10,428 nucleotides of DNA from a virus: UHGV virus genome UHGV-0062899. One strand, given 5' to 3'. Shown here piece after piece: positions 1-10,428 of the stretch (positions are counted from its first letter, which is position 1; each line of letters begins with the position of its first letter). A model generated the notes under the pieces. It searched no databases. It worked only from the letters and a program-made list of their open reading frames with translations, and was not told the DNA's origin. A program made the translations under genes and the position numbers.

Positions 1-1132
1 CCGCCCACCACTGCATCATTTCTCTGCGCTTATCGAAATACTGAGCATGGTTGTATATTCCGCGCACAGATCCTCCGTTGGCATGTGCCAGTTGCACTTC
101 AATAGCGTCAGCAGGCCATTCGTGCTCGTTCATAATCGTGCTGAATTCATGCCTGAATCCGTGACCGCTTTCCAGACCTTCATAGCCGATTTGTTTGATC
201 ACAAGCAGTACCGCGTTCTCGCAGATTGGCTTCTTCTTATCGTTGCGACCGGCAAAAACAAACTCTGATACTGGTTTGGTGATTGAGCTTAGCGTAGTGA
301 GAAGTTCAACCACCTGGTCTGACATAGGAACCACATGAATTTTGCGTCCCTTCATCACACTGGCGTCGATGGTGATAATCCTGTTTTCAAAATCGACGTT
401 CTTCCATAGCATGGAACGAAGCTCTTTTGTTCTGAGGGCTGTGTAGCGTAAAACTTTGGTCGCAATGAGCGATACGATGCTTCCTGAAAATGTTGCCAGT
501 GCTTTGTTAAATGCCGGGATCTGGTCTGCAGGAAGAAACGGGAAGTTTTTCTTGCGGTATCCCTTCATGGCGTCAGCAAGGTCAGGTGCCGGGTTATATT
601 TAGCCCTACCAGTGACAATAGCGTAACGGAAAACCTCTCCGCATCTTCTGCGGGCTTTATTTGCTCGCTCCATTGCACCGCGATCTTCAAATCTGCGGAT
701 TACTTCCAGCAGTTGCATCGGCTCAATCTCCTGAATTTCAAGGCCGCCGATGATAGGTAAAATGTCGTCATCAAACATTTTTGCAAGTTCAGTCGCATAC
801 CCTACTGACCATACTTGCTTCTTGTGCTCGTACCATTCCTTGTAAATCGCACTAAAGGAATTGTTGTTAGACGAAGCCTTTTTCGCCTTTACCGGATCGA
901 TGCCAACCGAGATGTCTTTCCTCGCAGTCCATGCCTTATCCCTTGCCTCCTGCAAAGTCATTAGCGGATATTTTCCTACGGTCAGGATTTTCTCCTTACC
1001 GTCAATCTTGTAGCGAAGCTGCCATACCTTTTTCCCGGATACAGGGACATAAAGGTACAGGCCATTACCATCGAGAAGGCGGTATGGTTTTTCTTTCGGC
1101 TTTGCTGCTTCAATCTGCTTAACAGTGAGCAT
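1..1132 (-). CDS. int: P4-type tyrosine integrase, partial (C-terminal end beyond window start)
   Basis: Minus-strand frame open from ATG at 1130-1132 to the window edge; absent from the ORF track because it runs off the end. Translation starts MLTVKQIEAAKPKEKPYRLLDGNGLYLYVPVSGKKVWQLRYKIDGKEK, the arm-binding N-domain pattern of P4/CP4-57-type integrases. Near the window start it reads HGFRHEFSTIMNEHEWPADAIEVQLAHANGGSVRGIYNHAQYFDKRREMMQWW, giving the H-x-x-R box and catalytic Tyr region. About 377 codons are present; the last ~30-40 are missing. Confidence 0.9.
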   Translation of the reverse strand, partial: MLTVKQIEAAKPKEKPYRLLDGNGLYLYVPVSGKKVWQLRYKIDGKEKILTVGKYPLMTLQEARDKAWTARKDISVGIDPVKAKKASSNNNSFSAIYKEWYEHKKQVWSVGYATELAKMFDDDILPIIGGLEIQEIEPMQLLEVIRRFEDRGAMERANKARRRCGEVFRYAIVTGRAKYNPAPDLADAMKGYRKKNFPFLPADQIPAFNKALATFSGSIVSLIATKVLRYTALRTKELRSMLWKNVDFENRIITIDASVMKGRKIHVVPMSDQVVELLTTLSSITKPVSEFVFAGRNDKKKPICENAVLLVIKQIGYEGLESGHGFRHEFSTIMNEHEWPADAIEVQLAHANGGSVRGIYNHAQYFDKRREMMQWWA

Positions 1133-1148
1133 GGGTAAAAATCCGGTG

Positions 1149-1166
1149 GGATAAATTATTTTATCC
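1149..1166. promoter_or_regulatory. Inverted repeat GGATAAA-TTAT-TTTATCC just upstream of the integrase start
   Basis: Perfect 7-bp arms with 4-bp spacer, 17 bp upstream of the int ATG, in an AT-rich leader with no strong Shine-Dalgarno. Function as operator or IHF-like site is inferred only. Confidence 0.3.
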
Positions 1167-1293
1167 ACTTTTTACCCGTCATGGAGTGCGGCTGTCAACG
1201 ATCTGAAGCGAACCATGACGAACTATGAATCTACGGAAGGCTTGATATTAAGGGGGTTTTGCGGACTGGTACGGATGGGAGCGAACTGATAAA

Positions 1294-1316
1294 TGGCGTC
1301 CCTGCAGGAATCGTCT
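1294..1316 (-). other. Candidate att core: tRNA 3-prime-end-like fragment (T-arm/acceptor/CCA-like)
   Basis: Minus strand reads GACGATTCCTGCAGGGACGCCA, resembling the end of a tRNA (GATTCC T-loop-like, 7-nt acceptor-like, ends CCA). From memory it resembles a tRNA-Arg-type 3-prime end. The adjacent ~75 nt are AT-rich and cannot fold as a tRNA body, so this is a fragment. It lies ~160 bp upstream of the P4-type int, where P4-like attP cores sit. Confidence 0.35.
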
Positions 1317-1444
1317 TTTAATTTAACTTATTGATATTTATTGATTATAGTTTTATTGGCTGTTAGATGTACCCGTTATTGTACCCGTTTGATAGCGTAC
1401 TACTGGCCTGTTATTAGCGATATCTATCACCGCTGTTAAAGCAC

Positions 1445-1470
1445 TGCAACCCCTATAGATAGGGGCTGCA
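1445..1470 (-). terminator. Hairpin immediately downstream of the Ogr/Delta-like gene; possible terminator
   Basis: TGCAACCCCT-ATAGAT-AGGGGCTGCA: a 10-bp stem with one G-U position, starting 8 nt past the stop at 1478. The minus-strand RNA continues GUGCUUUAACAG, only a weak U-tract. Confidence 0.4.
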
Positions 1471-1477
1471 TGGGTAT

Positions 1478-1711
1478 TTACAGCGTTTTTTCCTGGTGGC
1501 TGATCGGGAACTTGTCCGGTGGAAGGGCTTCAAGGGTATGTGATGGCAAATCGGGACGGTTAAGCGTGCAGTAAATCTCTGTCATAGAGATAAACGTCAG
1601 GCCACACTTAAGGTTCTGGCACTGATGATAGCTTTTTCTTACCAGGTCGCTGAGTTCAACGCTGGTTCTTGTCTTCGCCGTTGCATGGCATTGAGGGCAA
1701 CGCATAGCCAT
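1478..1711 (-). CDS. Ogr/Delta-family zinc-finger late transcription activator (77 aa)
   Basis: MAMRCPQCHATAKTRTSVELSDLVRKSYHQCQNLKCGLTF has the C-x2-C-x22-C-x4-C spacing and the RTS / YHQCQN motifs of P2 Ogr and P4 Delta. GAGGAG Shine-Dalgarno sits 8 nt upstream of the ATG. Confidence 0.85.
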   Translation of the reverse strand: MAMRCPQCHATAKTRTSVELSDLVRKSYHQCQNLKCGLTFISMTEIYCTLNRPDLPSHTLEALPPDKFPISHQEKTL

Positions 1712-1726
1712 ATGCGCTTCTCCTCT

Positions 1727-1770
1727 GGTCTGGTTAGTATCGCAATAATAATACCATACTGAACCAGACC
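1727..1770. promoter_or_regulatory. Long imperfect inverted repeat between the capsid-like gene and the Ogr/Delta-like gene
   Basis: GGTCTGGTTAGTAT (1727-1740) and ATACTGAACCAGACC (1756-1770): 14-bp arms with a one-base bulge around a 15-nt AT-rich loop. The stem base abuts the GAGGAG Shine-Dalgarno at 1720-1725 and no U-tract follows, so it is not a classical terminator. Confidence 0.35.
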
Positions 1771-1779
1771 GGAGACGGG

Positions 1780-2817
1780 TTAACGCTGATCGTTACCCCA
1801 GATAATCCCTTCAATCAGGCATCCCTTGCCGTAGTCTTCGACCACATAGGCGTTATTCCACGAATCATAGGTTGAGACGCGGTTAAATTCCGGTTCTTCC
1901 GAGATTTTGCGGCGGTGTGTTCCTGTTTGCCAGTACAAAGACAGATTATCAAGCGAAGTAACCAGCATCGCATTTTGAGGAAAGAACGGAATTGGGCAAA
2001 CGGGAAGCCCTCCGATCTGACGGTTCTCATTTTGTAATGCTAAAGCGAGCAACTCTTTATTTGGTGTCACTCCAAGATTATTAACAAAGGGATAATACTT
2101 TCCTGTAATCAATGAGAGATTACAAATAACAACAAGATCTGAATCCCCGGTGTGCCACGGATCTAATAATTCCTGATATGCCTCCATCGTCAGAGAGTCA
2201 ATAGTACCGTAATCCCCGCTGGACTCGATAATATTGGCGTTATTGCGGCGACTGACCGATACACCATTAACCACGCGGGCTGAGGCATTTCGCCGCCACT
2301 TTTCTAACCAGCCGGTATTAACATCCTGAAGCAACGGGTTAGCAGTAATATCTGATTTAGCCGCATGGTGAGTGCCATAAATGCCAGTCAGTATTACATC
2401 CAGTGCCTGACGGCGATAAATCTGGCTCTCCATATGCCCGAAGAAATTATCAAGGCCCGCCCACTGATCCAGTTTCTCATAAGAAACATAGGTATCAGTA
2501 TTCACCTGCTCACAACGGTATCGGTCAGTCTCTGCTGTACAACCTTGTACGGGCTGGCGTGCCTCTGTCGTTGAGTTGTTCGTACTGGACAGCGGTACAG
2601 ATGTAAGCCCGATCGACTCTTCTTCCTGCTCGTCCACTTCCAGAATATTTATCTGTTTAAGTAAATCTGCGCTTTCCTGCATCTTATCAACAATAGTTTG
2701 CGATGCAGATGGTGTAAGTGAAAAGGAAATCCCATCCAGCTTTGAACTGTTCAGCTTATTTTGTGATGCCTGCAATAAGCACCATGCATCATATTTTTCT
2801 CTGGTGCTGTTTTTCAT
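1780..2817 (-). CDS. P2 gpN-family major capsid protein homolog (345 aa)
   Basis: Conserved blocks match my recollection of P2 gpN along the whole length: MQESADLLKQINI, RQP, RYRCEQVNTDTY, NPLLQDVNTGWLEKWR, SGDYGTIDSLTMEA, DPWHTGDSDLVVI, GKYYPFVNN, LDNLSLYW, THRRKISEEPEFNRV, YVVEDYGKGCLIE. Length is close to gpN (about 357 aa). GGAG lies ~10 nt upstream of the ATG. Confidence 0.75.
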   Translation of the reverse strand: MKNSTREKYDAWCLLQASQNKLNSSKLDGISFSLTPSASQTIVDKMQESADLLKQINILEVDEQEEESIGLTSVPLSSTNNSTTEARQPVQGCTAETDRYRCEQVNTDTYVSYEKLDQWAGLDNFFGHMESQIYRRQALDVILTGIYGTHHAAKSDITANPLLQDVNTGWLEKWRRNASARVVNGVSVSRRNNANIIESSGDYGTIDSLTMEAYQELLDPWHTGDSDLVVICNLSLITGKYYPFVNNLGVTPNKELLALALQNENRQIGGLPVCPIPFFPQNAMLVTSLDNLSLYWQTGTHRRKISEEPEFNRVSTYDSWNNAYVVEDYGKGCLIEGIIWGNDQR

Positions 2818-2854
2818 ATAAAAAACTCCATTGATGGTATGAATTTAATCAAGA

Positions 2855-3592
2855 CTATTTTCTGAATGGCTCAATCCCCGCCGCCAGTCTCTTCTTATAA
2901 TCCATATCAGAGCGTGCTTTAGATTCCTGAATTGGCGAAGGACTGTTATTTAACGCATGGTTAATACTGCCAGACAATGCACCGGGGAAAAATGCCAGTA
3001 CAGGATCGCTGAAAAGACTACTGTCAGCATCACTCAATAATTCACGTACAACCGTTCTGGAGTCAACGCGAAGTAACTTCATAAATTCATCTGATAATAT
3101 TCTTTCTGCATCACTGGTGTTTAATCCTGCCAGAGAATAAAGCCCAATGACGACAGACAATCGCTCACCAACCAGCGCTCTGAGGTCGTCTTTAAGAGAC
3201 TGGAGAAAAGAATCCGCAATCACTGACGAAAGTTTAAAATAAGCCTCTTTCGTCTGGCGTGCCTGGCTTGCGGTTTGAATCCGTAGATCAAGCACCGTCA
3301 GGCTCTGGGATTCAATCAACTCCTGGATTTTTTGAAGCTTTACCATCACCTGCGCTGCGGACAGTGCCGCACCATCTGTTTCCGCACTTTCAACGCCTCC
3401 GTTCCTGAGCAACGCAAGCCCCCAGTCACCGGCACTATGGCCCGCGTTTGACTCCACTTCTATTTTTCGCTTTGTCTCGCTCAGGTTGGCAAGCACCTTC
3501 TCTTCGTCTGAAAGAGACTTATAGGCACGGTCAAATAGCTCTTTCTGCTGCTGGTAACTCACGAGTAATGCCTGCATGTTGTTTTGTGTCAT
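2855..3592 (-). CDS. Alpha-helical protein, possibly a Sid-like external scaffold / capsid size-determination protein (245 aa)
   Basis: Real-looking ORF forming an operon with the two genes downstream. It is rich in L/A/E/Q/S helical segments. Its size (245 aa vs 244 for P4 Sid) and position upstream of an Ogr/Delta-like gene fit Sid, and a segment SAGDWGLALLRNGGVES loosely matches what I recall of Sid. Functional call is tentative. Confidence 0.45.
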   Translation of the reverse strand: MTQNNMQALLVSYQQQKELFDRAYKSLSDEEKVLANLSETKRKIEVESNAGHSAGDWGLALLRNGGVESAETDGAALSAAQVMVKLQKIQELIESQSLTVLDLRIQTASQARQTKEAYFKLSSVIADSFLQSLKDDLRALVGERLSVVIGLYSLAGLNTSDAERILSDEFMKLLRVDSRTVVRELLSDADSSLFSDPVLAFFPGALSGSINHALNNSPSPIQESKARSDMDYKKRLAAGIEPFRK

Positions 3593-3747
3593 CGTCCTGC
3601 ACCTTGTGATTATTGCGATGGGAAAATGATTGCAGGAAAAATAAATCCAGTCGCACCGTTAAGGTTGTCAGGGGTGTACTACACCTATAAGCATCATTCG
3701 TCCCGGACGGTTTGCGCAGATAATGCAGACAGGCCAAAGGAGGAACT

Positions 3748-3957
3748 ATGCCCACATTACCCAGAAATAACAGGTCGGTGCTGAAATCACTGAGGATCCC
3801 CAATGAACTGGATCAGTACATAGTGGCGATGAGCAAGCGAAGTGGTGCGAGCTATTGTCGTTGCCTGATCGAACTGGCCGGTGCGGGTCTGCTGGCTAAA
3901 GGGATCGGGCGAATAGCCGTTCCTGAGATCGATTCCTGCCGGAAACATCGAATATAA
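3748..3957 (+). CDS. Small ribbon-helix-helix-like DNA-binding protein (69 aa), candidate regulator
   Basis: AAGGAGG Shine-Dalgarno 4-5 nt upstream of the ATG. KSLRIPNELDQYIVAMSKRSGASYCRCLIELA fits the beta-strand/helix/helix pattern of Arc/MetJ/CopG-type proteins. It is the only plus-strand gene and is divergent from the morphogenesis operon. A GATAAT -10-like hexamer lies at 3719-3724. Confidence 0.55.
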   Translation: MPTLPRNNRSVLKSLRIPNELDQYIVAMSKRSGASYCRCLIELAGAGLLAKGIGRIAVPEIDSCRKHRI

Positions 3958-4126
3958 CCCCGCCCAGCCCGTACGAGCGGGTGTATTACACATCCAGCCG
4001 CATACGCTCATATGGTACAGATCTGCCCTTGAATCCTTCACGATCTAGCCTGATGGGTGCCGTTCCCTTCAAAAAAATTGATGCATTAACACAAAAAGAT
4101 GTGATCAACTACCAGATGCAATATAA

Positions 4127-4160
4127 GCCTCTCAGAGCCACGCTGAGAGGTGTTTTCATT
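4127..4160 (+). terminator. Rho-independent terminator (plus strand)
   Basis: GCCTCTCAG-AGCCACG-CTGAGAGGT: a 9-bp stem with terminal G-U and 7-nt loop, followed by GTTTTCATT. It lies 170 bp downstream of the RHH-like gene. Confidence 0.5.
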
Positions 4161-4253
4161 ATCCACCTTCCTGCATTACCCATCTATAAAACGCATCACA
4201 TCAAGCCGGAGAATAATCAGGATATGCCATCCTGTCTCACCTCTCAGCGCGCG

Positions 4254-4281
4254 CTTGTTCCCCCGCCTCGCCCGCACGCAG
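4254..4281 (-). other. cos-like site (P2/P4/186-type cohesive-end sequence)
   Basis: Minus strand reads GGCGAGGCGGGGGAACAAGCGCGCGCTGAGAGG. The first 12 nt equal the start of the P2/P4 19-nt cohesive end as I recall it (GGCGAGGCGGGGAAAGCAC), and a CGCGCTGA block follows as I recall for P4. A chance 12-mer match in this window is improbable. Confidence 0.5.
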
Positions 4282-4589
4282 AAAGCCCGCTTTTTTGTGC
4301 AAATGTGCAGTCCGGCCAAAGCCGTGCCCCGTCTGGGCTGGAGTGGCAAAAGTACCATCAAAAAAATTGTGCATTAGCGTGCAAATTTGTGCGGTGATTT
4401 TGCAGCGATCATTTTCACCTTAAAAAGAGCCAAACTCCGGCTGCGCCCGGGCCAGTTATGCACGCTGTTTTCGTGTTGCACAATGTTGATTTATTGCCCT
4501 CGGTGCACGCTGATTTGAAAGTGAAGTGTGAAAAAAGGGTTAACAGAAAAAGAGCTGTTTTACTGAAAAACTGAGGGGAGGTACGGAAG

Positions 4590-4860
4590 TCGGTTACAAC
4601 GGTTACGGGGGTGAAATAATATGCTTAACTCAATGATTTATATTAATTAAATTTGTAACCTTTGTGAGGTTACAAAAGGTTCCATTAAAGTTACACCCAA
4701 TAAAATCAATCAGTTAAATATCTAAGTTGTAACTTTAGATAAGGTTACAGAGTAACCCGATCGTAACCCGGTTGTAACTTTTCCAAGTTGGTGAAAATTA
4801 CATATAAATCAATATAATATATTTATATCTTTACTTTGTAACTTTTGTAACCCGTTTCCG
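4590..4860. repeat. Iteron array (about 12 copies of GGTTACAA/TTGTAACC, both orientations) around an AT-rich core; putative replication origin or integrase arm sites
   Basis: Copies at 4592-4599, 4601-4607, 4653-4660, 4668-4675, 4689-4696, 4736-4743, 4743-4750, 4751-4758, 4761-4768, 4772-4779, 4836-4843 and 4846-4854. An AT-rich stretch at 4795-4835 lies among them. The array is non-coding and sits just downstream of the int2/primase operon. Confidence 0.6.
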
Positions 4861-5127
4861 ATCCCCCCCCTCAAATTCTGGAAAATCTGCTTTTTTTTAA
4901 AAAAGGCTTCTTTTCTGTTAAATGTTTTGTCATTTCGCCAAATGTCCGGCAATGGCTCCACTCCGGCAAACACTGCCACTTACGGCAGTGCTGGCCATAC
5001 ATCGAGTACAGTCATTTTTAACCGTGCTGCAGAACGGTCAGAAACGACGGTGATCCGGGCGATGAGGGCGTAATGCAGAACAGCTAAAAACGAAGGGAAT
5101 ATATCTACGCTACGAGGGAAAGGGGTA

Positions 5128-5147
5128 AACCGGCCCGTCAGCCGGTC
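5128..5147 (-). terminator. Possible terminator hairpin directly after the P2-type integrase stop
   Basis: Minus-strand RNA has a GC-rich stem ACCGGC/GCCGGU with a 5-6 nt loop, followed by UUUACCCCUUUCCC. The stem is short. Confidence 0.35.
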
Positions 5148-5149
5148 AT

Positions 5150-6130
5150 TCAGAGGCTGATTCCGCCAGAAAGGGGATTGAGTGAAACGGCGTGTTGCAG
5201 ATAGTCAGGCGCAACATGCGCATAAACCATCGTCTGCTGGATACTGGCGTGACCAAGAATTTGTTGTAAGGCGATAATATTGCCCCCGTTCATCATGAAC
5301 CAGCTTGCAAACGTATGGCGAAGCACATGCGTAGCCTGCCCGCGCGGCAGGTCCGGCTTAACCTCCCTAAGCCGCCCGCAAAAGGCTTCATAGTCAACGC
5401 TGAACAGCGGCCCGCAATCGCGGGTTTTGATCTCTTTTTCCAGTTCATCCGATATTGGGATCGTGCGCCTCTTCCCGTTTTTGGTTTTAAGAAAAGTTAC
5501 GCGTCCGTGGTTAATCTGCTCTCCCCGCAGTGTGCTGCCTTCTCCCCAGCGTGCGCCGGTGCTGAGGCACAAAAGAGCAACACGGCGATCGTCACCTGTA
5601 AGGGTATTCAATAATCGACTGATTTCCGATTTAGTAAGGTAGGTCATTGCTGCTGGTTTCTCCCTCAATGGCTCCAGCCCTTTACAGGGGTTATCAGCCT
5701 TGAATTCATCCAGTTTTATCAGGGCGCTGAACATACCCGAAAGGCGATATATATCACGGTTGACGGTGGCCGTGCTGATCCCTGAATCCAGCCGCTCGCT
5801 GCGATGCTGCGCGATGATTCGTTTAGTCAGCCGGTTAACTGCCGGGTTGCCCAGGGCTCTGATCGTTTTATCTAGGTGTCGTTTTTCGGCGTTTCCGTTC
5901 TCCAGCGTCCGGCCATACAGCAGCCACCAGATGTTTAGCAGCTCGCTGAGAGTACGCCGATCGGTGCTGGCGCCCAACCACTCTTTTTTATCGGCATTCG
6001 CCATAACATACCGTTCAAAGAGCGCTGCCTCCTGCTTTCTGTCAAAAATCCTGCGAAAGCGCTTACCGCTGCGCCCTCTGGCATAAATATCGACTTCATA
6101 ACGCCCGTCAGCCCGTTTTTTAATGGTCAT
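5150..6130 (-). CDS. int: P2-Int-like tyrosine recombinase, complete (326 aa)
   Basis: N-terminus MTIKKRADGRYEVDIYARGRSGKRFRRIFDRKQEA matches my recollection of P2/186-type integrases. Catalytic set is complete: LSTGARWGE (Arg I), KTKNGKRRTIPIS (Lys), HVLRHTFAS (His/Arg II), LGHASIQQT (His III), MVYAHV (Tyr). GAGGAA Shine-Dalgarno 8 nt upstream; start is 16 nt after the primase stop. Confidence 0.85.
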   Translation of the reverse strand: MTIKKRADGRYEVDIYARGRSGKRFRRIFDRKQEAALFERYVMANADKKEWLGASTDRRTLSELLNIWWLLYGRTLENGNAEKRHLDKTIRALGNPAVNRLTKRIIAQHRSERLDSGISTATVNRDIYRLSGMFSALIKLDEFKADNPCKGLEPLREKPAAMTYLTKSEISRLLNTLTGDDRRVALLCLSTGARWGEGSTLRGEQINHGRVTFLKTKNGKRRTIPISDELEKEIKTRDCGPLFSVDYEAFCGRLREVKPDLPRGQATHVLRHTFASWFMMNGGNIIALQQILGHASIQQTMVYAHVAPDYLQHAVSLNPLSGGISL

Positions 6131-6145
6131 ACTATTGTTCCTCTG

Positions 6146-8815
6146 CTACTGAGCGGCCGGCACTTTAAAAATCCAGCATTTCACCTGCTCAGGCTCTTTC
6201 GGGCCAGCCTCTCCACGCCCCTGATTTGCCAGTCTGGAAACCTCACTTCTTACCGTCTTCTGGCCCGTACACGGCCGCATACGCCCGTTTTTCAGGTAAT
6301 CCTGAATTTCTTTCGCCGGGGGAATATTTACACGCTGCATAGCAGCTATACGCATCAGGTGAGGGAAGTTAATGGCGATCTCGTCGCGATTCTCTTTCCC
6401 AAAATGGTTGACGCCGAAACGCTCCAGGCTATTCAGATAATCAAAGGCATCCCAGAACTCACGAACCACAGGGATATCCGCTTCCAGCGATTTAACCCGC
6501 TCCACCGCCATCACAGTAAGCTGTTCACAGGTGCGATCGAGGCGTTCTGCGGGAATATCCAGAACACAGGTCAGCGCCCTTACACATGCAATCATCTGGG
6601 CATGATTTTTGGCAATTCGGATATGACGAATTTCAGAGTGTTGTTCCAGCCTGATTTTTTCGGCCTCATACACCTCCTGAATAATCGACAATACTGCGCT
6701 TTCCCTGCATACCGCCCGGATCATAAAACCAGATACCTGATCGACCGGCAGACGCTCAAGGCGTTCAGCCGCCGCCCTGGTCAGCGATGACTGACGGCGT
6801 TTATCCGTAAACACATGGATAATACGTTCCAGTATCGCAGGTGAGGCGTTAACGGTGGCATTCTGCGCGATGACAATGCTGCCCCTGAATGGCGGCTCTC
6901 TGGTTTCATTGTTGTTGGTCTTAACACCAATCGCCCGTAATCCGCGCCCGTTGTAGAGCGGTTTTAGCTCATCGAAGTCAAAGCCGCGCAGCTTCTTCGT
7001 GTCTTGGGCGCGATCGCCTTCAAGCAGCACGACGGGAAGGTTTGAGACCTGGGCGAAGTTACGATAAATGCCCGCAACAGAACCCTTTGAAGGGTCAATT
7101 CCCTCATAGCTGTCCCTGCCACAGAGCCGCCAGAGAAAATCAATCAGCGTGGATTTACCTGTTCCCGGTTCACCGATAATCTCCAGAAAGGGAAAGCTGG
7201 CCTGCTGTTCGCGTATCTGTTCAACGAAGAATGTTCCCAGCCAGAATGCCAGCGCGACATAGCCATTTTCACCAAAAGCCGTCCAGATATCATCGGCCCA
7301 GCCTGACGAAAGCGAATTATCATCAGAATTGATATTGATTAACGGGGATCGGCTCAGTGTCTTGATATTCATCCCACCAATCTCAAAGTAATCTTCGCTG
7401 TTCAAGGAGTAGACCTTCCCGTTATGTATCGCCAGCTTATTGAATACCCATGCCCGCCAGTCCCTGTTATACCCAATAAAGTCCTGCGTCCTGACCTCTT
7501 TGATCCGGGGCAGATCCTTTTTAATCAGACCATCGAGCTGCTGGCTGGTTCCGGTATAGAGCGCACCTTTTGCCACATGGAGGAGACGCTTTTTAAACTC
7601 AGACGCAGAAGAGATCTGCCCCGCGGTAAAGGAGTCTTTCACTGCGGGTGTATTGCCTGGAAAGGCGATGCGAAAATAATACCAGGACTCGTCTGTAACT
7701 TCTGAACGCATAAAATACAGCGGTGCGGGGTGACAATTGGCTATTTCCTTAATTGCTCCAGACTCTTTCAATGCAATACTTCTGGCTTCACGTTCATCAT
7801 TAACTTTTTTATCGTTAAGGATACGCTCAACGGCCTTCATATGGCGCTCAATGTCCAGCTTAAACCAGTACACGCAGTTCCCGTATTCGAAGTGAAACTC
7901 AGGGCGTTCATTATGTTCAAACATCCGAAGCGCCTTATCTCGGGCGCTTTCCGCCAGCAACAGATCGCCGTAATAGCGGTACTCTTTCTGGTGTCGTCTG
8001 GTCAGCTTTCCGGTAAGGTGGAGATCGTTCCAGTCAGCTTTATTGCTCCCCTGTGAAGGAAGTGCGGCAACGGCTTTCCAGCCTTGTTCACGGCTCCGCG
8101 CCACATGGCGACGTATGGCTGTTTCCCCTGCTTTCCCATTGTCCAGCGCCCAGACAAGAAACGGCTTTTCTTTGCCCTGGAATTGTTCAGCAAGCGCTTT
8201 AAGCGCGGCTTCCGGGTAGTTTCCGGCAGTCATAATGGAAACGGCAGGGGTGCCGTTCTGATAAAGGCTAATGGCGTCAAAAATCCCCTCAGTTAGCCAG
8301 ATACAACTGACTTTAGCCAGATCCAGCGCTGGCGGAACCCACCAGTGACCGGCGTACTTACCGTGGAAGTTAGCCTTTCGATCAAAGCGTTCTGGCTTGT
8401 CGATAATCCGCTCCCACCAGATACCATCAGACAGGGCAAAGCGAACCGTTGCGCTTCCCATGCCGCCCTTATGGTAGCTTTCCTGCGTATAGCAGCCCTT
8501 TAAGCAGGTAGTATCCAGCCCTCTGGCTTCTCTCAGATAGGCTTCCGCAGCGGCAAAAGGCTGCTCAGGCGTGCTCTCATAGCGATCTGACCATGAGTTA
8601 AATAATTCAGGATAGAGCGATTTTACCGACAGATCAGCGCCGCAATTATTTTCCCGGCCACAGCGCAGCACCCAAGGATTTTCCATGCTGGTAAAGAGTT
8701 CTTTCTTGTTACATTCAGGGCAAATACCTGAGCGCAGATAGCCGTTCTGCTCTTTAAACTGGTAATCATGCACCAGTCGTTTTATGATTTCGGGGCGTAG
8801 ATCTTTTCTGTTCAT
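6146..8815 (-). CDS. Bifunctional primase / P-loop NTPase replication protein (zinc-ribbon + Toprim + Walker A/B), P4 alpha-like (889 aa)
   Basis: N-terminal C-x2-C-x16-C-x5-C zinc ribbon (CPECNKK...RCGRENNC); Toprim-like motifs IWLTEGIFDAISLY and LVWALDNGKAG; Walker A GEPGTGKST with downstream VVLLEGD (Walker B-like). AAGGA Shine-Dalgarno 7 nt upstream of the ATG. Confidence 0.85.
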   Translation of the reverse strand: MNRKDLRPEIIKRLVHDYQFKEQNGYLRSGICPECNKKELFTSMENPWVLRCGRENNCGADLSVKSLYPELFNSWSDRYESTPEQPFAAAEAYLREARGLDTTCLKGCYTQESYHKGGMGSATVRFALSDGIWWERIIDKPERFDRKANFHGKYAGHWWVPPALDLAKVSCIWLTEGIFDAISLYQNGTPAVSIMTAGNYPEAALKALAEQFQGKEKPFLVWALDNGKAGETAIRRHVARSREQGWKAVAALPSQGSNKADWNDLHLTGKLTRRHQKEYRYYGDLLLAESARDKALRMFEHNERPEFHFEYGNCVYWFKLDIERHMKAVERILNDKKVNDEREARSIALKESGAIKEIANCHPAPLYFMRSEVTDESWYYFRIAFPGNTPAVKDSFTAGQISSASEFKKRLLHVAKGALYTGTSQQLDGLIKKDLPRIKEVRTQDFIGYNRDWRAWVFNKLAIHNGKVYSLNSEDYFEIGGMNIKTLSRSPLININSDDNSLSSGWADDIWTAFGENGYVALAFWLGTFFVEQIREQQASFPFLEIIGEPGTGKSTLIDFLWRLCGRDSYEGIDPSKGSVAGIYRNFAQVSNLPVVLLEGDRAQDTKKLRGFDFDELKPLYNGRGLRAIGVKTNNNETREPPFRGSIVIAQNATVNASPAILERIIHVFTDKRRQSSLTRAAAERLERLPVDQVSGFMIRAVCRESAVLSIIQEVYEAEKIRLEQHSEIRHIRIAKNHAQMIACVRALTCVLDIPAERLDRTCEQLTVMAVERVKSLEADIPVVREFWDAFDYLNSLERFGVNHFGKENRDEIAINFPHLMRIAAMQRVNIPPAKEIQDYLKNGRMRPCTGQKTVRSEVSRLANQGRGEAGPKEPEQVKCWIFKVPAAQ

Positions 8816-8826
8816 ATAAAATCCTT

Positions 8827-8849
8827 AAGCGCCGCTCATCACGGCGCTT
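8827..8849. promoter_or_regulatory. Stem-loop abutting the primase ribosome-binding site
   Basis: AAGCGCCG-CTCATCA-CGGCGCTT, a perfect 8-bp stem, between the 87-aa ORF stop (8855) and the primase Shine-Dalgarno (8823-8827). On the plus strand a T-rich run follows (TTTTATTTCAC). On the sense minus strand it is followed by UUAAGGAUUUUAU. Confidence 0.35.
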
Positions 8850-8854
8850 TTATT

Positions 8855-9118
8855 TCACTCTTTGTCTTCTTGTACAGCATGTCCCAGATATTTGTCACAA
8901 ATCCCCAGGCGTTTAACTTCCTGTAGTACTGATGAAATATCTTCACTGATATAACTGAAAATATCCGGTATCCATAAGAGTGGCATCGCGTTAGCTTCAC
9001 ACTGGCGAATATGTAAATGCATCTGAAATGCGACATTCCTCGCGCGATTCAGTTTGTGATAATTCTCAATACTGAGGTGAGACGGATTAACACTCTGAAT
9101 ATGATTACTTGTTGTCAT
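8855..9118 (-). CDS. Hypothetical protein (87 aa)
   Basis: AGAGGA Shine-Dalgarno 5-6 nt upstream of the ATG; same strand as the replication operon; no family recognised. Confidence 0.5.
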   Translation of the reverse strand: MTTSNHIQSVNPSHLSIENYHKLNRARNVAFQMHLHIRQCEANAMPLLWIPDIFSYISEDISSVLQEVKRLGICDKYLGHAVQEDKE

Positions 9119-9195
9119 GGCATAGTCCTCTTTCGACGGATGAAGGCATCCCCCGAAAATTAATTCGGTTTAAACTGACTCAGATTAAATACGTG

Positions 9196-9429
9196 TTATC
9201 GGCTCTGATTAATAAATAATGGCGTGATTATTTCCAGCACCTTTAGCGCTTTAAAATGCGTTAATCCTTCCCAACGTAGCTGGGCCGTAGCCCGGATTAT
9301 TGCATCATCGCGATTAAGCGCCTCAACCGTCACCTGTGCACTGCGCGTATAACCTTTACGCGTCACCGCATAACCAGAAACCTGATAAGATTTATTCCTT
9401 GTTACTTTACCGCGAAAGATATTAGCCAT
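9196..9429 (-). CDS. Hypothetical small protein g5 (77 aa)
   Basis: Start ATGGCTAA overlaps the stop of the upstream gene by 8 nt (translational coupling). Basic protein; no family recognised. Confidence 0.55.
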   Translation of the reverse strand: MANIFRGKVTRNKSYQVSGYAVTRKGYTRSAQVTVEALNRDDAIIRATAQLRWEGLTHFKALKVLEIITPLFINQSR

Positions 9430-9616
9430 GTTTCACCTTCCCGACTGTTACGGTGTATTCATTATCATCGGCATATTTCCCGTTACAGGTAATAACATCG
9501 GCCATTTTACAGGCTGCTTTCACCGCCTTAACGGATGATTTATATTCCTGCGTGCTTTGATAATTTTGTATTTCGCCAGTAATAACGTTACGGCAGGTAA
9601 TGAACAGTTTATACAT
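9422..9616 (-). CDS. Hypothetical small protein g4 (64 aa), paralog of g3
   Basis: Start taken at the internal ATG (MYKLFIT...) preceded by GGAGG and overlapping the g3 stop (ATGTATAA). N-terminus and length resemble g3. Confidence 0.55.
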   Translation of the reverse strand: MYKLFITCRNVITGEIQNYQSTQEYKSSVKAVKAACKMADVITCNGKYADDNEYTVTVGKVKHG

Positions 9617-9800
9617 TTCCGGCCTCCGCAATTTTCACAATACATTCATGCGTTACGGTGCCGATGGCATTCTTATGGATATACGCCATTTTCTGCGCGT
9701 CTTTCCATGCAGCTTCGCGGGTTTTATAGCGGCCAATGTGAACCAGTTCGCGCCGGTCGCCAGCTTCGTGATTAATCAGGGTGATAAGCAGTTTAAACAT
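9609..9800 (-). CDS. Hypothetical small protein g3 (63 aa), paralog of g4
   Basis: Start taken at ATG (MFKLLIT...) overlapping the g2 stop (ATGTTTAA), preceded by GAGGTGG. The track ORF is 4 codons longer at its 5-prime end. Confidence 0.55.
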   Translation of the reverse strand: MFKLLITLINHEAGDRRELVHIGRYKTREAAWKDAQKMAYIHKNAIGTVTHECIVKIAEAGNV

Positions 9801-10047
9801 GAGCCACCTCACGAGCTGTTATCCGATCTTTTAATTCAGCAATTAAGCGGTTCAGGACGTCCCGCCCTTTATCGTTCAAAGCGTCAAGGCCGTAATCGTA
9901 AGCGGCAAAAATGGCGATCTCCATTTCACGCGAATCTATTTCAACCGTTACTTTTGTACCTGGCTTGATGAAAGCTGGCGGCGCGTAGTGGTTATCATGG
10001 AACGGGTTAAGTGTTGCGGCTTTTTGGTTATCAAGGGGGTTAAACAT
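9793..10047 (-). CDS. Hypothetical small protein g2 (84 aa)
   Basis: Start taken at ATG (MFNPLDNQ...) overlapping the g1 stop (ATGTTTAA), preceded by GAGGTGG. C-terminus is REVAHV, the same as g1. Confidence 0.55.
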   Translation of the reverse strand: MFNPLDNQKAATLNPFHDNHYAPPAFIKPGTKVTVEIDSREMEIAIFAAYDYGLDALNDKGRDVLNRLIAELKDRITAREVAHV

Positions 10048-10237
10048 GGGCCACCTCGCGAACCGGCAGACGACCGGCAAAAGAGGCGATAAATTCACGC
10101 GCTATAACGCGGCGTGCGGCCTGATAGGTTGAGGCGGTGACTTCTTCACGGTGTGGACGTGCGGACACGTCAGAACGGCGCACAGCGAGAAAAAGCCAAA
10201 CAAATTGGGGATGCAATGGGGCAGGGGTTGTCATCAT
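10040..10237 (-). CDS. Hypothetical small protein g1 (65 aa); alternative longer start at 10417
   Basis: ATG-ATG pair with AAGGAG 9 nt upstream (MMTTPAPLHPQF...). The frame stays open upstream to 10417 (125-aa track ORF), but that extension has no ribosome-binding site and contains a dyad repeat. Confidence 0.45.
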   Translation of the reverse strand: MMTTPAPLHPQFVWLFLAVRRSDVSARPHREEVTASTYQAARRVIAREFIASFAGRLPVREVAHV

Positions 10238-10266
10238 AATGATGATCTCCTTGTACTTAATTAAGG

Positions 10267-10307
10267 AGTCACCACCGGAGTTTCCACGCTCATGATTGGT
10301 GGTGACA
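10267..10307. promoter_or_regulatory. Dyad symmetry element upstream of the small-ORF cassette; candidate operator
   Basis: AGTCACCACC (10267-10276) and GGTGGTGACT (10298-10307): perfect 10-bp inverted arms with a 21-bp spacer, ~30 bp upstream of the g1 start. A near-palindrome TCATCATAATGATGA (10231-10245) covers the start codon. Confidence 0.3.
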
Positions 10308-10428
10308 CTGACAGGGGTGGAAATACCGGCGTACAAGGAGACCGGCCAGCCCGAAAGCTGCCCTGCCAGAGCCACCATTGATACTGCGCGGATCTGCTCC
10401 GCTGAATATGGTGGCACTGATTTAACGA

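Follow-up and report, generated by a model that had tools for sequence, protein, structure and literature searches.

An integrative P4-like satellite of Escherichia coli with a P2-family capsid gene beside its Sid homolog

Phage P4 is the textbook satellite without structural genes, which only reshapes the capsid of its helper. The virus genome UHGV-0062899, a stretch of 10,428 nucleotides referred to here as the window, raises the question of what kind of element combines P4-type core genes with P2-type ones, including a major capsid gene of the P2 family. A preliminary description of this DNA had read it as a compact satellite-like genome of the P2/P4 family, either a mosaic or a distinct lineage. 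It listed a P4-type integrase, an Ogr/Delta activator, a Sid-like gene, a cos site, an alpha-like primase, an early operon of small open reading frames (ORFs) and a second integrase behind the primase, in an order regarded as non-canonical. The satellite nature and the mosaic make-up are sustained by the present analysis: window 1314-10428 covers about 78% of an integrative phage satellite of 11.63 kb, located at a tRNA-Arg gene (argW) of the E. coli chromosome, and it combines a P4-type integrase, AlpA, an Ash/eta-like gene with a CI-type RNA, an epsilon homolog, a Sid homolog and an Ogr box with a capsid, Ogr, cos and integrase of the P2 type. The satellite nature and the identity of the parts can be stated with high confidence.

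Extension of the sequence in both directions revealed the ends of the element and the adjoining tRNA. Among 5,426 complete E. coli genomes, strain KCJ3K291 (NZ_CP054407) is the sole full-length match to the window. The satellite starts at window position 1314 and extends another 2.5 kb past the right edge, so that its integrase end lies outside the window. The att core is the 17-nt 3' end of tRNA-Arg, GTCCCCTGCAGGAATCG, found at both ends 11,627 bp apart (L001), and a Logan contig of 11,631 bp is a unitig spanning att core to att core; the P4 genome measures 11,624 bp. The att repeat within the window (1294-1313), a copy of the argW 3' end with one C fewer than the L001 core, forms the satellite boundary on the ogr side. 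Two GTACCCGTT repeats (1369-1389) lie near it and are probably arm-type sites of the satellite's P4-type integrase, as the same ACGGGTAC repeats also stand beside the att core on the integrase side, beyond the window. This integrase adjoins tRNA-Arg and has 419 aa, 52% identity to P4 Int and the domains Arm-DNA-bind_3, Phage_int_M and Phage_integrase. Together with an AlpA protein (PF05930, 8e-19; 31% identity to P4 orf88), it is located 1-2.3 kb past the right edge of the window. From argW, the annotation of NZ_CP054407 continues from the 419-aa tyrosine integrase and the AlpA-type regulator through an "Icd-like"/Ash gene, small ORFs, a toprim protein, a "phage integrase", two hypothetical genes, a P2-family major capsid gene and Ogr/Delta to intS and CPS-53/KpLE1 remnants. 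Portal, terminase, gpO (scaffold-protease) and tail genes are neither annotated nor present among the ORFs of the 11.6-kb unit, which also lacks lysis genes. The flanks do not place the unit within a larger conventional prophage. Of the gene set of P2-like phages it has just N (capsid), ogr and int, along with cos; the modules for head, packaging and contractile tail (Q, P, O, N, M, L, tail) are incomplete, and the element is not a phage of this group. Additionally, PADLOC finds no defence genes in the element and PLSDB holds no plasmid copy of it.

The most unusual feature of this unit, passed over in the preliminary description, is a full-length gene for a P2-family major capsid protein (gpN homolog) at 1780-2817(-), placed between the sid-like gene and ogr in one operon. 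Its 345-aa product matches PF05125 at 6e-99 and aligns over residues 1-341 with gpN in the Protein Data Bank (PDB; 7jw1_A, 8.8e-79). It shares 40% identity with P2 gpN and 49% with the capsid of a P2-like prophage of strain 730V1, the candidate helper discussed below. Among the capsids of this satellite and its relatives the identity is 53-63%; it falls to 44-54% against the nearest subgroup of phage capsids and to 40% against P2 gpN. In a neighbour-joining tree they form one clade (200/200 bootstrap replicates) far from any sampled phage capsid. Their departures at positions conserved in phages cluster in the N-terminal 75 residues and in the sir loop. The N-terminal changes Y12W and E42V occur in 4/4 satellite capsids, as do the changes M184 to V/I and N209 to T in the sir loop and Sid contact; L221 is changed to V in 2/4, and L221V is a known sir allele (PMC7552001). 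The clade thus appears to be old, specific to satellites and linked to a Sid homolog, which argues against a recent capture of the capsid.

The gene upstream in the same operon, at 2855-3592(-), encodes a 245-aa protein that profile-profile comparison and fold searches identify as distantly homologous to Sid, the external scaffold for capsid size in P4. These two kinds of evidence bear out the earlier Sid-like assignment for a protein that has no match in Pfam, NCBIfam, phmmer against the PDB or BLAST and tblastn against phages, and only a weak one (E 0.002, a family of unknown function) in PHROGs. A word-indexed search returned only two near-identical proteins, and a scan of a genome collection found the family in only 2 species representatives. 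An exhaustive HMMER search of 1.84 billion representatives yielded 13 clusters of 219-270 aa. The profile of these clusters matches the profile of P4 Sid homologs with 93.5% probability (E 2.3e-7) over 129 colinear columns. With the 13-cluster alignment, AlphaFold gave a model with a mean local confidence (pLDDT) of 87.4 and a predicted template-modelling score (pTM) of 0.74; from a 3-sequence alignment, AlphaFold2 reached a pLDDT of 49.7, and both the good model and the profile required the diversity of the exhaustive search. Against 350,542 PDB chains, Foldseek placed P4 Sid (7jw1_E, prob 0.99, 236 columns) first and P4 Psu second. The most conserved motif of the family, SPSPIQ(E/Q)S with invariant P220 and Q222, is aligned with Sid T219-P220-A221-Q222-R223-K224, so that an (S/T)PxQ contact motif is common to both proteins. 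In P4 Sid, the segment T219-K224 contacts the sir loop of gpN (Kizziah et al., PMC7552001). No ORF of the element matches P4 Psu, and the sid-like gene product is its sole protein with a Sid/Psu fold. As an alternative origin of the 245-aa protein, gpO was ruled out (hhalign probability 0.1%).

The order of the late operon is sid homolog, gpN-type capsid and ogr, behind a TGT-N12-ACA box at 3666-3683 that is the only such motif in the window. The box is centred 82 nt upstream of the ATG of the sid-like gene; in the relatives from Scandinavium, Pantoea, Rahnella and L015 this distance is 82-86 nt, and at P4 Psid it is 81 nt. On the established model of P2/P4 late promoters, it would serve as a Psid-like promoter activated by Ogr/Delta. 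The ogr gene itself (1478-1711(-)), recognised as Ogr/Delta from the outset, encodes a 77-aa zinc-finger late activator (PF04606, 9.8e-16). Its identity is 32% with the Ogr of P2 and 33% with the Delta of P4, and like the former it consists of one domain, compared with two in Delta. Divergent from the operon, a gene at 3748-3957(+) encodes 69 aa with the N-terminal motif KS[IL]R[IVL]P.E.D, which is kept in five satellites. It has no match in Pfam, PHROG or NCBIfam, and by this motif it is probably a ribbon-helix-helix (RHH) DNA-binding protein. Its position is that of the terminase/portal genes in a helper phage.

The pairing of sid-like and capsid genes recurs in related elements, being adjacent in all six others with a readable late region: E. 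coli variants (L020/L021), Pantoea stewartii (L004), Rahnella (L006), L015, L022 and L023. The Scandinavium contig (L008) breaks off within the sid-like gene, before the point where a capsid gene would follow. The replication gene varies among the relatives and may be a phiCTX-type primase, a DUF927-type primase or gpA, and in 5/6 of them a P2-type integrase follows it. The Scandinavium relative shares the early operon (91% of nucleotides), the cos/RHH/sid region (90% of nucleotides) and the integrase (79% of amino acids). This architecture appears to be that of a lineage found in several enterobacterial genera and not an accident. Furthermore, five of its genes are under purifying selection. 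The ratio of nonsynonymous to synonymous substitution rates (dN/dS), measured against variant elements that are 87-97% identical in nucleotides, lies between 0.04 and 0.11: 0.04 for the second integrase, 0.05-0.08 for ogr, 0.06 for the primase, 0.08 for the capsid and 0.11 for the sid-like gene. The value for the 69-aa gene is 0.44, from few substitutions. In the Scandinavium contig, the gene in the epsilon position and the primase have been swapped for unrelated genes (L008 4152-4517 and 4573-7239) with sharp breakpoints, and the flanks remain 90-91% identical in nucleotides.

The cos region lies at 4231-4406(-), with a predicted 19-nt cohesive end, GGCGAGGCGGGGGAACAAG, at 4255-4273(-). It is a P2-family site as had been supposed, since its flanks are identical to the P2 junction at 15/15 and 9/9 positions; the reverse strand of 4246-4279 reads TGCGGGCGAGGCGGGGGAACAAGCGCGCGCTGA and the P2 junction reads GGCGGGCGAGGCGGGGAAAGCACTGCGCGCTGA. 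The site was spotted by eye and then by short-word BLAST; a scan for the exact P2 cos with up to 3 mismatches finds none, as 4 mismatches fall within the last 7 positions of the site. The similarity to the Salmonella phages SEN4/5 breaks off precisely at the terminus of their genomes. The region is also 80% identical over 175 bp in about 43 E. coli genomes. In strain 730V1, the one inspected, the match lies downstream of the portal gene of a P2-like prophage integrated at cpxP, with a nearly identical core. Synteny with this prophage also overturns the idea of a non-canonical gene order, for P2 itself normally has its cos between the genes for replication and those for the head. The phage order is N <- O, then divergent P -> Q - cos - ... 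- A, and the satellite order is ogr <- N <- sid-like, then divergent RHH -> cos - ori - Int <- primase. An ORF of 138 aa at 3981-4397(+), for which one Logan contig gives a gene call of 114 aa, runs over the cos site and is probably spurious.

A second integrase does stand directly after the primase, at 5150-6130(-). This 326-aa protein (Int326) is of the P2 type, with an Int_N domain (PF24624) and a catalytic domain (PF00589) whose catalytic residues are intact, and it is 51% identical to P2 Int over the full length. Its best matches in E. coli are P2-like prophages with a 326-aa integrase, such as the one at cpxP in 730V1, whose integrase is 82% identical in amino acids and which carries the matching cos type. 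By these similarities, the P2-like prophage lineage at cpxP is a candidate helper. From the 82% identity of the integrases and the matching cos, as against 49% for the capsids, the integrase and cos appear to be close to the candidate helper lineage and the capsid old and satellite-specific. At 10152-10167(+), a tandem of TGTGGACG and TGCGGACA resembles the arm repeats of P2-type integrases (CTGTGGACACTGTGTGGACAC in the P2 P' arm). It sits in the Ash/eta-like ORF, 4 kb from Int326, and may be due to chance or represent a distant arm site.

Replication is probably served by the 889-aa primase-helicase at 6146-8815(-), which contains Toprim_2/3 and matches phrog_1139 over its full length. In tblastn it is 56% identical to ESSI2_ev239, 47% to RSY1 and 43% to phiCTX orf37, a type that occurs in P2-like phages; P4 is absent among these matches, and blastp against P4 alpha gives E 0.06, in the P-loop only. 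The "alpha-like primase" therefore survives as a large Toprim primase of analogous architecture (Toprim plus NTPase) and not as a member of the alpha family. Between cos and Int326, an AT-rich cluster at 4593-4851, which had gone unlisted, holds 9 copies of the iteron (G)GTTACA(A) in both orientations. These are 9 of the 12 GTTACA copies in the window, a total that no shuffle reaches. In a k-mer scan that recovers the annotated ori and crr of P4, this is the top cluster of the window, and no iteron cluster was found by the scan in gpA-type relatives. At the same position, the Scandinavium relative has a different iteron, GTGGGAACA, in at least 13 copies, together with a replication protein that is non-homologous to the window primase (blastp E 0.25). 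Since it keeps a 79%-identical integrase, the iterons follow the primase and not the integrase. The cluster is thus a probable replication origin for the primase, and for the same reason iterons as arm sites of Int326 were ruled out.

The early small-ORF operon is P4-like, as first described, and includes an epsilon homolog. This 87-aa helper derepression protein, encoded at 8855-9118(-), matches PF25738 at 6.2e-20 and is 47% identical to P4 epsilon (5.8e-17). Four overlapping small early ORFs at 9196-10048(-), annotated as coding sequences in NZ_CP054407, have no match in Pfam, PHROGs, NCBIfam or PADLOC; this region is 91% identical in the Scandinavium relative. An Ash/eta-like gene (199 aa; PF10554, 4e-28; 50% identity to the P4 'cI 137' ORF) follows at 10041-10428(-), cut by the right edge of the window so that only its 3' part is included. 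It contains a P4-CI-type immunity RNA at 10295-10382(-), an addition to the features first listed. This RNA fits the Rfam family C4 (RF01695) over the full model length at 79 bits (E 1.3e-14; gathering score 45), and its folding z-score is -4.3. Rfam also places isrK and c4-a1b1 target elements just past the window.

These parts suggest a life cycle in which the satellite would exploit a resident P2-like phage. In the integrated state, the CI-like RNA would keep the early operon terminated, as in P4. Epsilon would derepress the resident helper, and the Ogr proteins of helper and satellite would cross-activate late promoters, including the Psid-like one. The primase would then replicate the excised circle from the iteron origin beside cos. 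The satellite capsid and its own Sid-type external scaffold would build small, P4-sized (T=4) procapsids, with the helper providing the gpO scaffold-protease, portal, terminase, head completion, tail and lysis functions, and the helper terminase would cut and package the 11.6-kb genome at the satellite cos. The account as a whole, covering the satellite, its parts and the life cycle, is rather probable. That small shells are assembled from the satellite's own capsid, as homology, genome size and conservation suggest, is a more evenly balanced proposition. The fuller version is tentative and somewhat unlikely: capsid and Sid would form a private, co-evolving pair, the shells made of satellite subunits would be immune to sir-type escape by the helper gpN, and the helper-type integrase would act on helper att sites. 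The least certain step is this action of Int326, either using the helper attB or excising the helper; it is the likeliest role for the protein, though we regard it as doubtful in itself. Int326 could supply the integrase missing in a non-inducible P2-type prophage after derepression by epsilon, or it could let the satellite share the helper attB.

Several observations weigh against this account. No attP, core or arm sites of Int326 were found, neither P2-type (TGTGGACA) nor helper-type (TTGTCTACA) arm repeats are clustered near its gene, and the relative L023 has no P2-type integrase. KCJ3K291 lacks a second copy of this cos type. With 49% identity to the candidate helper's capsid, the fit of the satellite capsid to the helper's gpO, portal and head-completion proteins is uncertain. 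The capsid tree is distance-based only, and long-branch attraction may affect it. Moreover, the capsids of distant relatives are longer (393-420 aa versus 345) and their elements look longer than 11.6 kb, so that a strict T=4 size rule may fail across the family; the longer genes are L022 10741-12003 (420 aa) and L023 10728-11909 (393 aa). As the main rival explanation, the capsid could be chiefly a weapon that co-assembles with helper gpN and spoils or diverts T=7 heads, the satellite DNA being packaged largely in helper shells shaped by the Sid homolog. The Ccm protein of SaPIbov5, a satellite-encoded homolog of the helper's major capsid protein, redirects capsid size in this manner. The satellite capsid is a diverged paralog of helper capsids at 49% identity, its specific changes, which are concentrated in the sir loop and in gpN 1-75 (the N-arm and the cleaved region), could alter co-assembly, and the Sid homolog retains the (S/T)PxQ motif of P4 Sid, which acts on helper gpN. 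However, the protein is full length and strongly conserved over the whole Pfam model, and its low dN/dS (0.08) and stable linkage to the Sid homolog suit a structural partner at least equally well. A mainly destructive role is considered distinctly unlikely, and both roles could coexist.

It is quite improbable that the element is an ordinary P4-like satellite whose extra genes are cargo from a variable hot spot. Its P4-type integrase, AlpA, epsilon, CI RNA, Ogr/Delta homolog, Sid homolog and P4-like size would all suit such a view. However, the element lacks Psu and has a primase of another family instead of alpha; PADLOC defence genes are lacking; and the capsid gene is flanked by sid-like and ogr within the late operon instead of occupying a cargo region, and is co-inherited with the sid-like gene, whose family comprises 13 protein clusters at 50% identity and which adjoins it in 6/6 readable elements. 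A decaying fusion, in which a P4-like island and the remnant of a P2-like prophage were joined by deletion and capsid, ogr and second integrase are roleless leftovers, would account for the synteny of the late half with P2-like phages (N, O position, P/Q position, cos), for the resemblance of Int326 and cos to one prophage lineage and for a site that is a hot spot of tandem islands. Yet the ORFs are all intact and under purifying selection, and the att repeats enclose exactly one P4-sized unit. Several genera share this architecture, in combination with three different replication proteins, the satellite capsids are monophyletic and far from sampled phage capsids, and a near-identical element lies in different chromosomal backgrounds, all of which makes a fusion very improbable. 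Finally, a major capsid protein and a scaffold-like protein are also what a capsid-forming phage-inducible chromosomal island (cfPICI) would encode, which completes heads by itself and steals only tails. Membership in this group is hardly conceivable for a unit that has no portal, maturation protease, head-tail adaptor or connector, TerL or TerS in 11.6 kb. A satellite that pairs its own capsid with a Sid homolog and borrows the remaining functions from a P2-like helper is the reading we prefer.

Compared with P4, this satellite has the same tRNA-targeting type of integrase (52%), AlpA/Vis, an Ash/eta gene hosting a CI-type RNA, epsilon (47%), an Ogr/Delta late promoter at the same distance from the Sid homolog, a P2-family cos and a genome of 11.63 kb. 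It differs in lacking Psu and in having a phiCTX-type primase, a Sid homolog too diverged for ordinary searches, a gpN-type capsid in the late operon, a single-domain Ogr in place of the two-domain Delta, an extra P2-type integrase, and cos, ori and int ordered as in P2. Of the seven P4-like markers in the core set of SatelliteFinder, four are clear (int at the element end, alpA, epsilon and delta), sid is recognised by remote homology only, and alpha and psu are missing. With P2-like phages (Peduoviridae; the 730V1 cpxP prophage, SEN4/SEN5) it shares the capsid family, Ogr, an integrase (82% to 730V1), the cos core and flank and the local synteny of N, O position, divergent promoter, P/Q position and cos. 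However, it is one third of their size, lacks portal, terminase, gpO, tail and lysis genes, has a capsid at 49% identity, and carries the Sid homolog in place of gpO and the 69-aa RHH-like gene in place of P/Q. Gram-negative phage-inducible chromosomal islands (PICIs) with lambdoid helpers follow a four-zone plan with capture of late genes (Tommasini, Mageeney and Williams 2023, PMC10111431). The same order is found here (gene order from L001 and L010; RNAs by Rfam), with an Int and AlpA zone, a Bro/Ash zone with C4 and isrK RNAs, one zone for replication and a late zone; the late genes, in contrast, are P2-type and not lambdoid, and the capsid appears to belong to an old satellite-specific clade. 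The cfPICIs encode a full head and packaging module (PMC10085698). With these and with SaPIbov5 (Ccm) the satellite has in common a satellite-encoded homolog of the helper's major capsid protein, but those systems belong to other phage families with no sequence relation, and the present element has no head and packaging module and pairs its capsid with an external Sid-type scaffold.

A full-text search of open-access papers and preprints found no description of a P4-like satellite with a gpN-type capsid gene. Unlike the textbook P4, this related lineage keeps a Sid homolog plus its own gpN-type capsid under purifying selection. If the proposed role of the capsid is true, the lineage would be intermediate in autonomy between P4, devoid of structural genes, and the cfPICIs with their full head module. 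Helper escape by capsid mutation may then be bypassed, as the target of the Sid homolog would be the capsid protein that the satellite itself encodes, and the matched pair of capsid and scaffold would offer a natural experiment on capsid-size control. The helper-type integrase raises the question of how satellites manipulate non-inducible P2-type prophages. As regards gene flow, P2 and P4 almost never exchange defence genes according to a 2026 survey (PMC13586616), and the present satellite mixes P4-type and P2-type core genes. Additionally, marker-based tools may miss such elements, because 3/7 P4 marker genes are absent or unrecognisable.

The left end of the window belongs to a neighbouring island. 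The P4-type integrase first noticed there is intS of an adjacent cryptic prophage of the CPS-53/KpLE1 type (1-1132(-), its last codons lost at the window edge), outside the satellite; it is annotated as intS in NZ_CP054407 and is 32% identical to the satellite's own integrase, which with AlpA lies outside the window. Window 1-1313 is assigned to this island because the same stretch adjoins tRNA-Arg in genomes without the satellite. At argW, two tandem islands with unrelated P4-family integrases (intS and the satellite Int) thus use one tRNA 3' end. The satellite part shows 2 differences in 9,116 nt (99.98% identity) from the KCJ3K291 copy, whereas the flank 1-1313 is 99.9% identical to E. coli strain S1 and 95.8% identical to KCJ3K291. 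A near-identical element beside a flank that differs by 4.2% places it in different chromosomal backgrounds; a third flank surrounds the element in another sample (L011), and these comparisons point to recent mobility.

Some further observations concern the relatives. The elements L022, L023 and that of Pantoea adjoin mug(UDG)-rpoD-dnaG-rpsU, which looks like a second integration hot spot of the family. The Rahnella and L015 relatives encode proteins of 101-108 aa with only a Terminase_5 domain (gpP N-terminal) beside the RHH gene near cos (L006 8332-8658(-), L015 249-554(-)); such a gene is absent from the E. coli window, and these proteins might serve to redirect packaging. A complete 186/P2-like prophage (L005 13191-21050) was seen in one Pantoea stewartii genome about 1.8 kb from the ogr end of the satellite, at a site that is empty in another (L004); the two are a possible natural satellite-helper pair.

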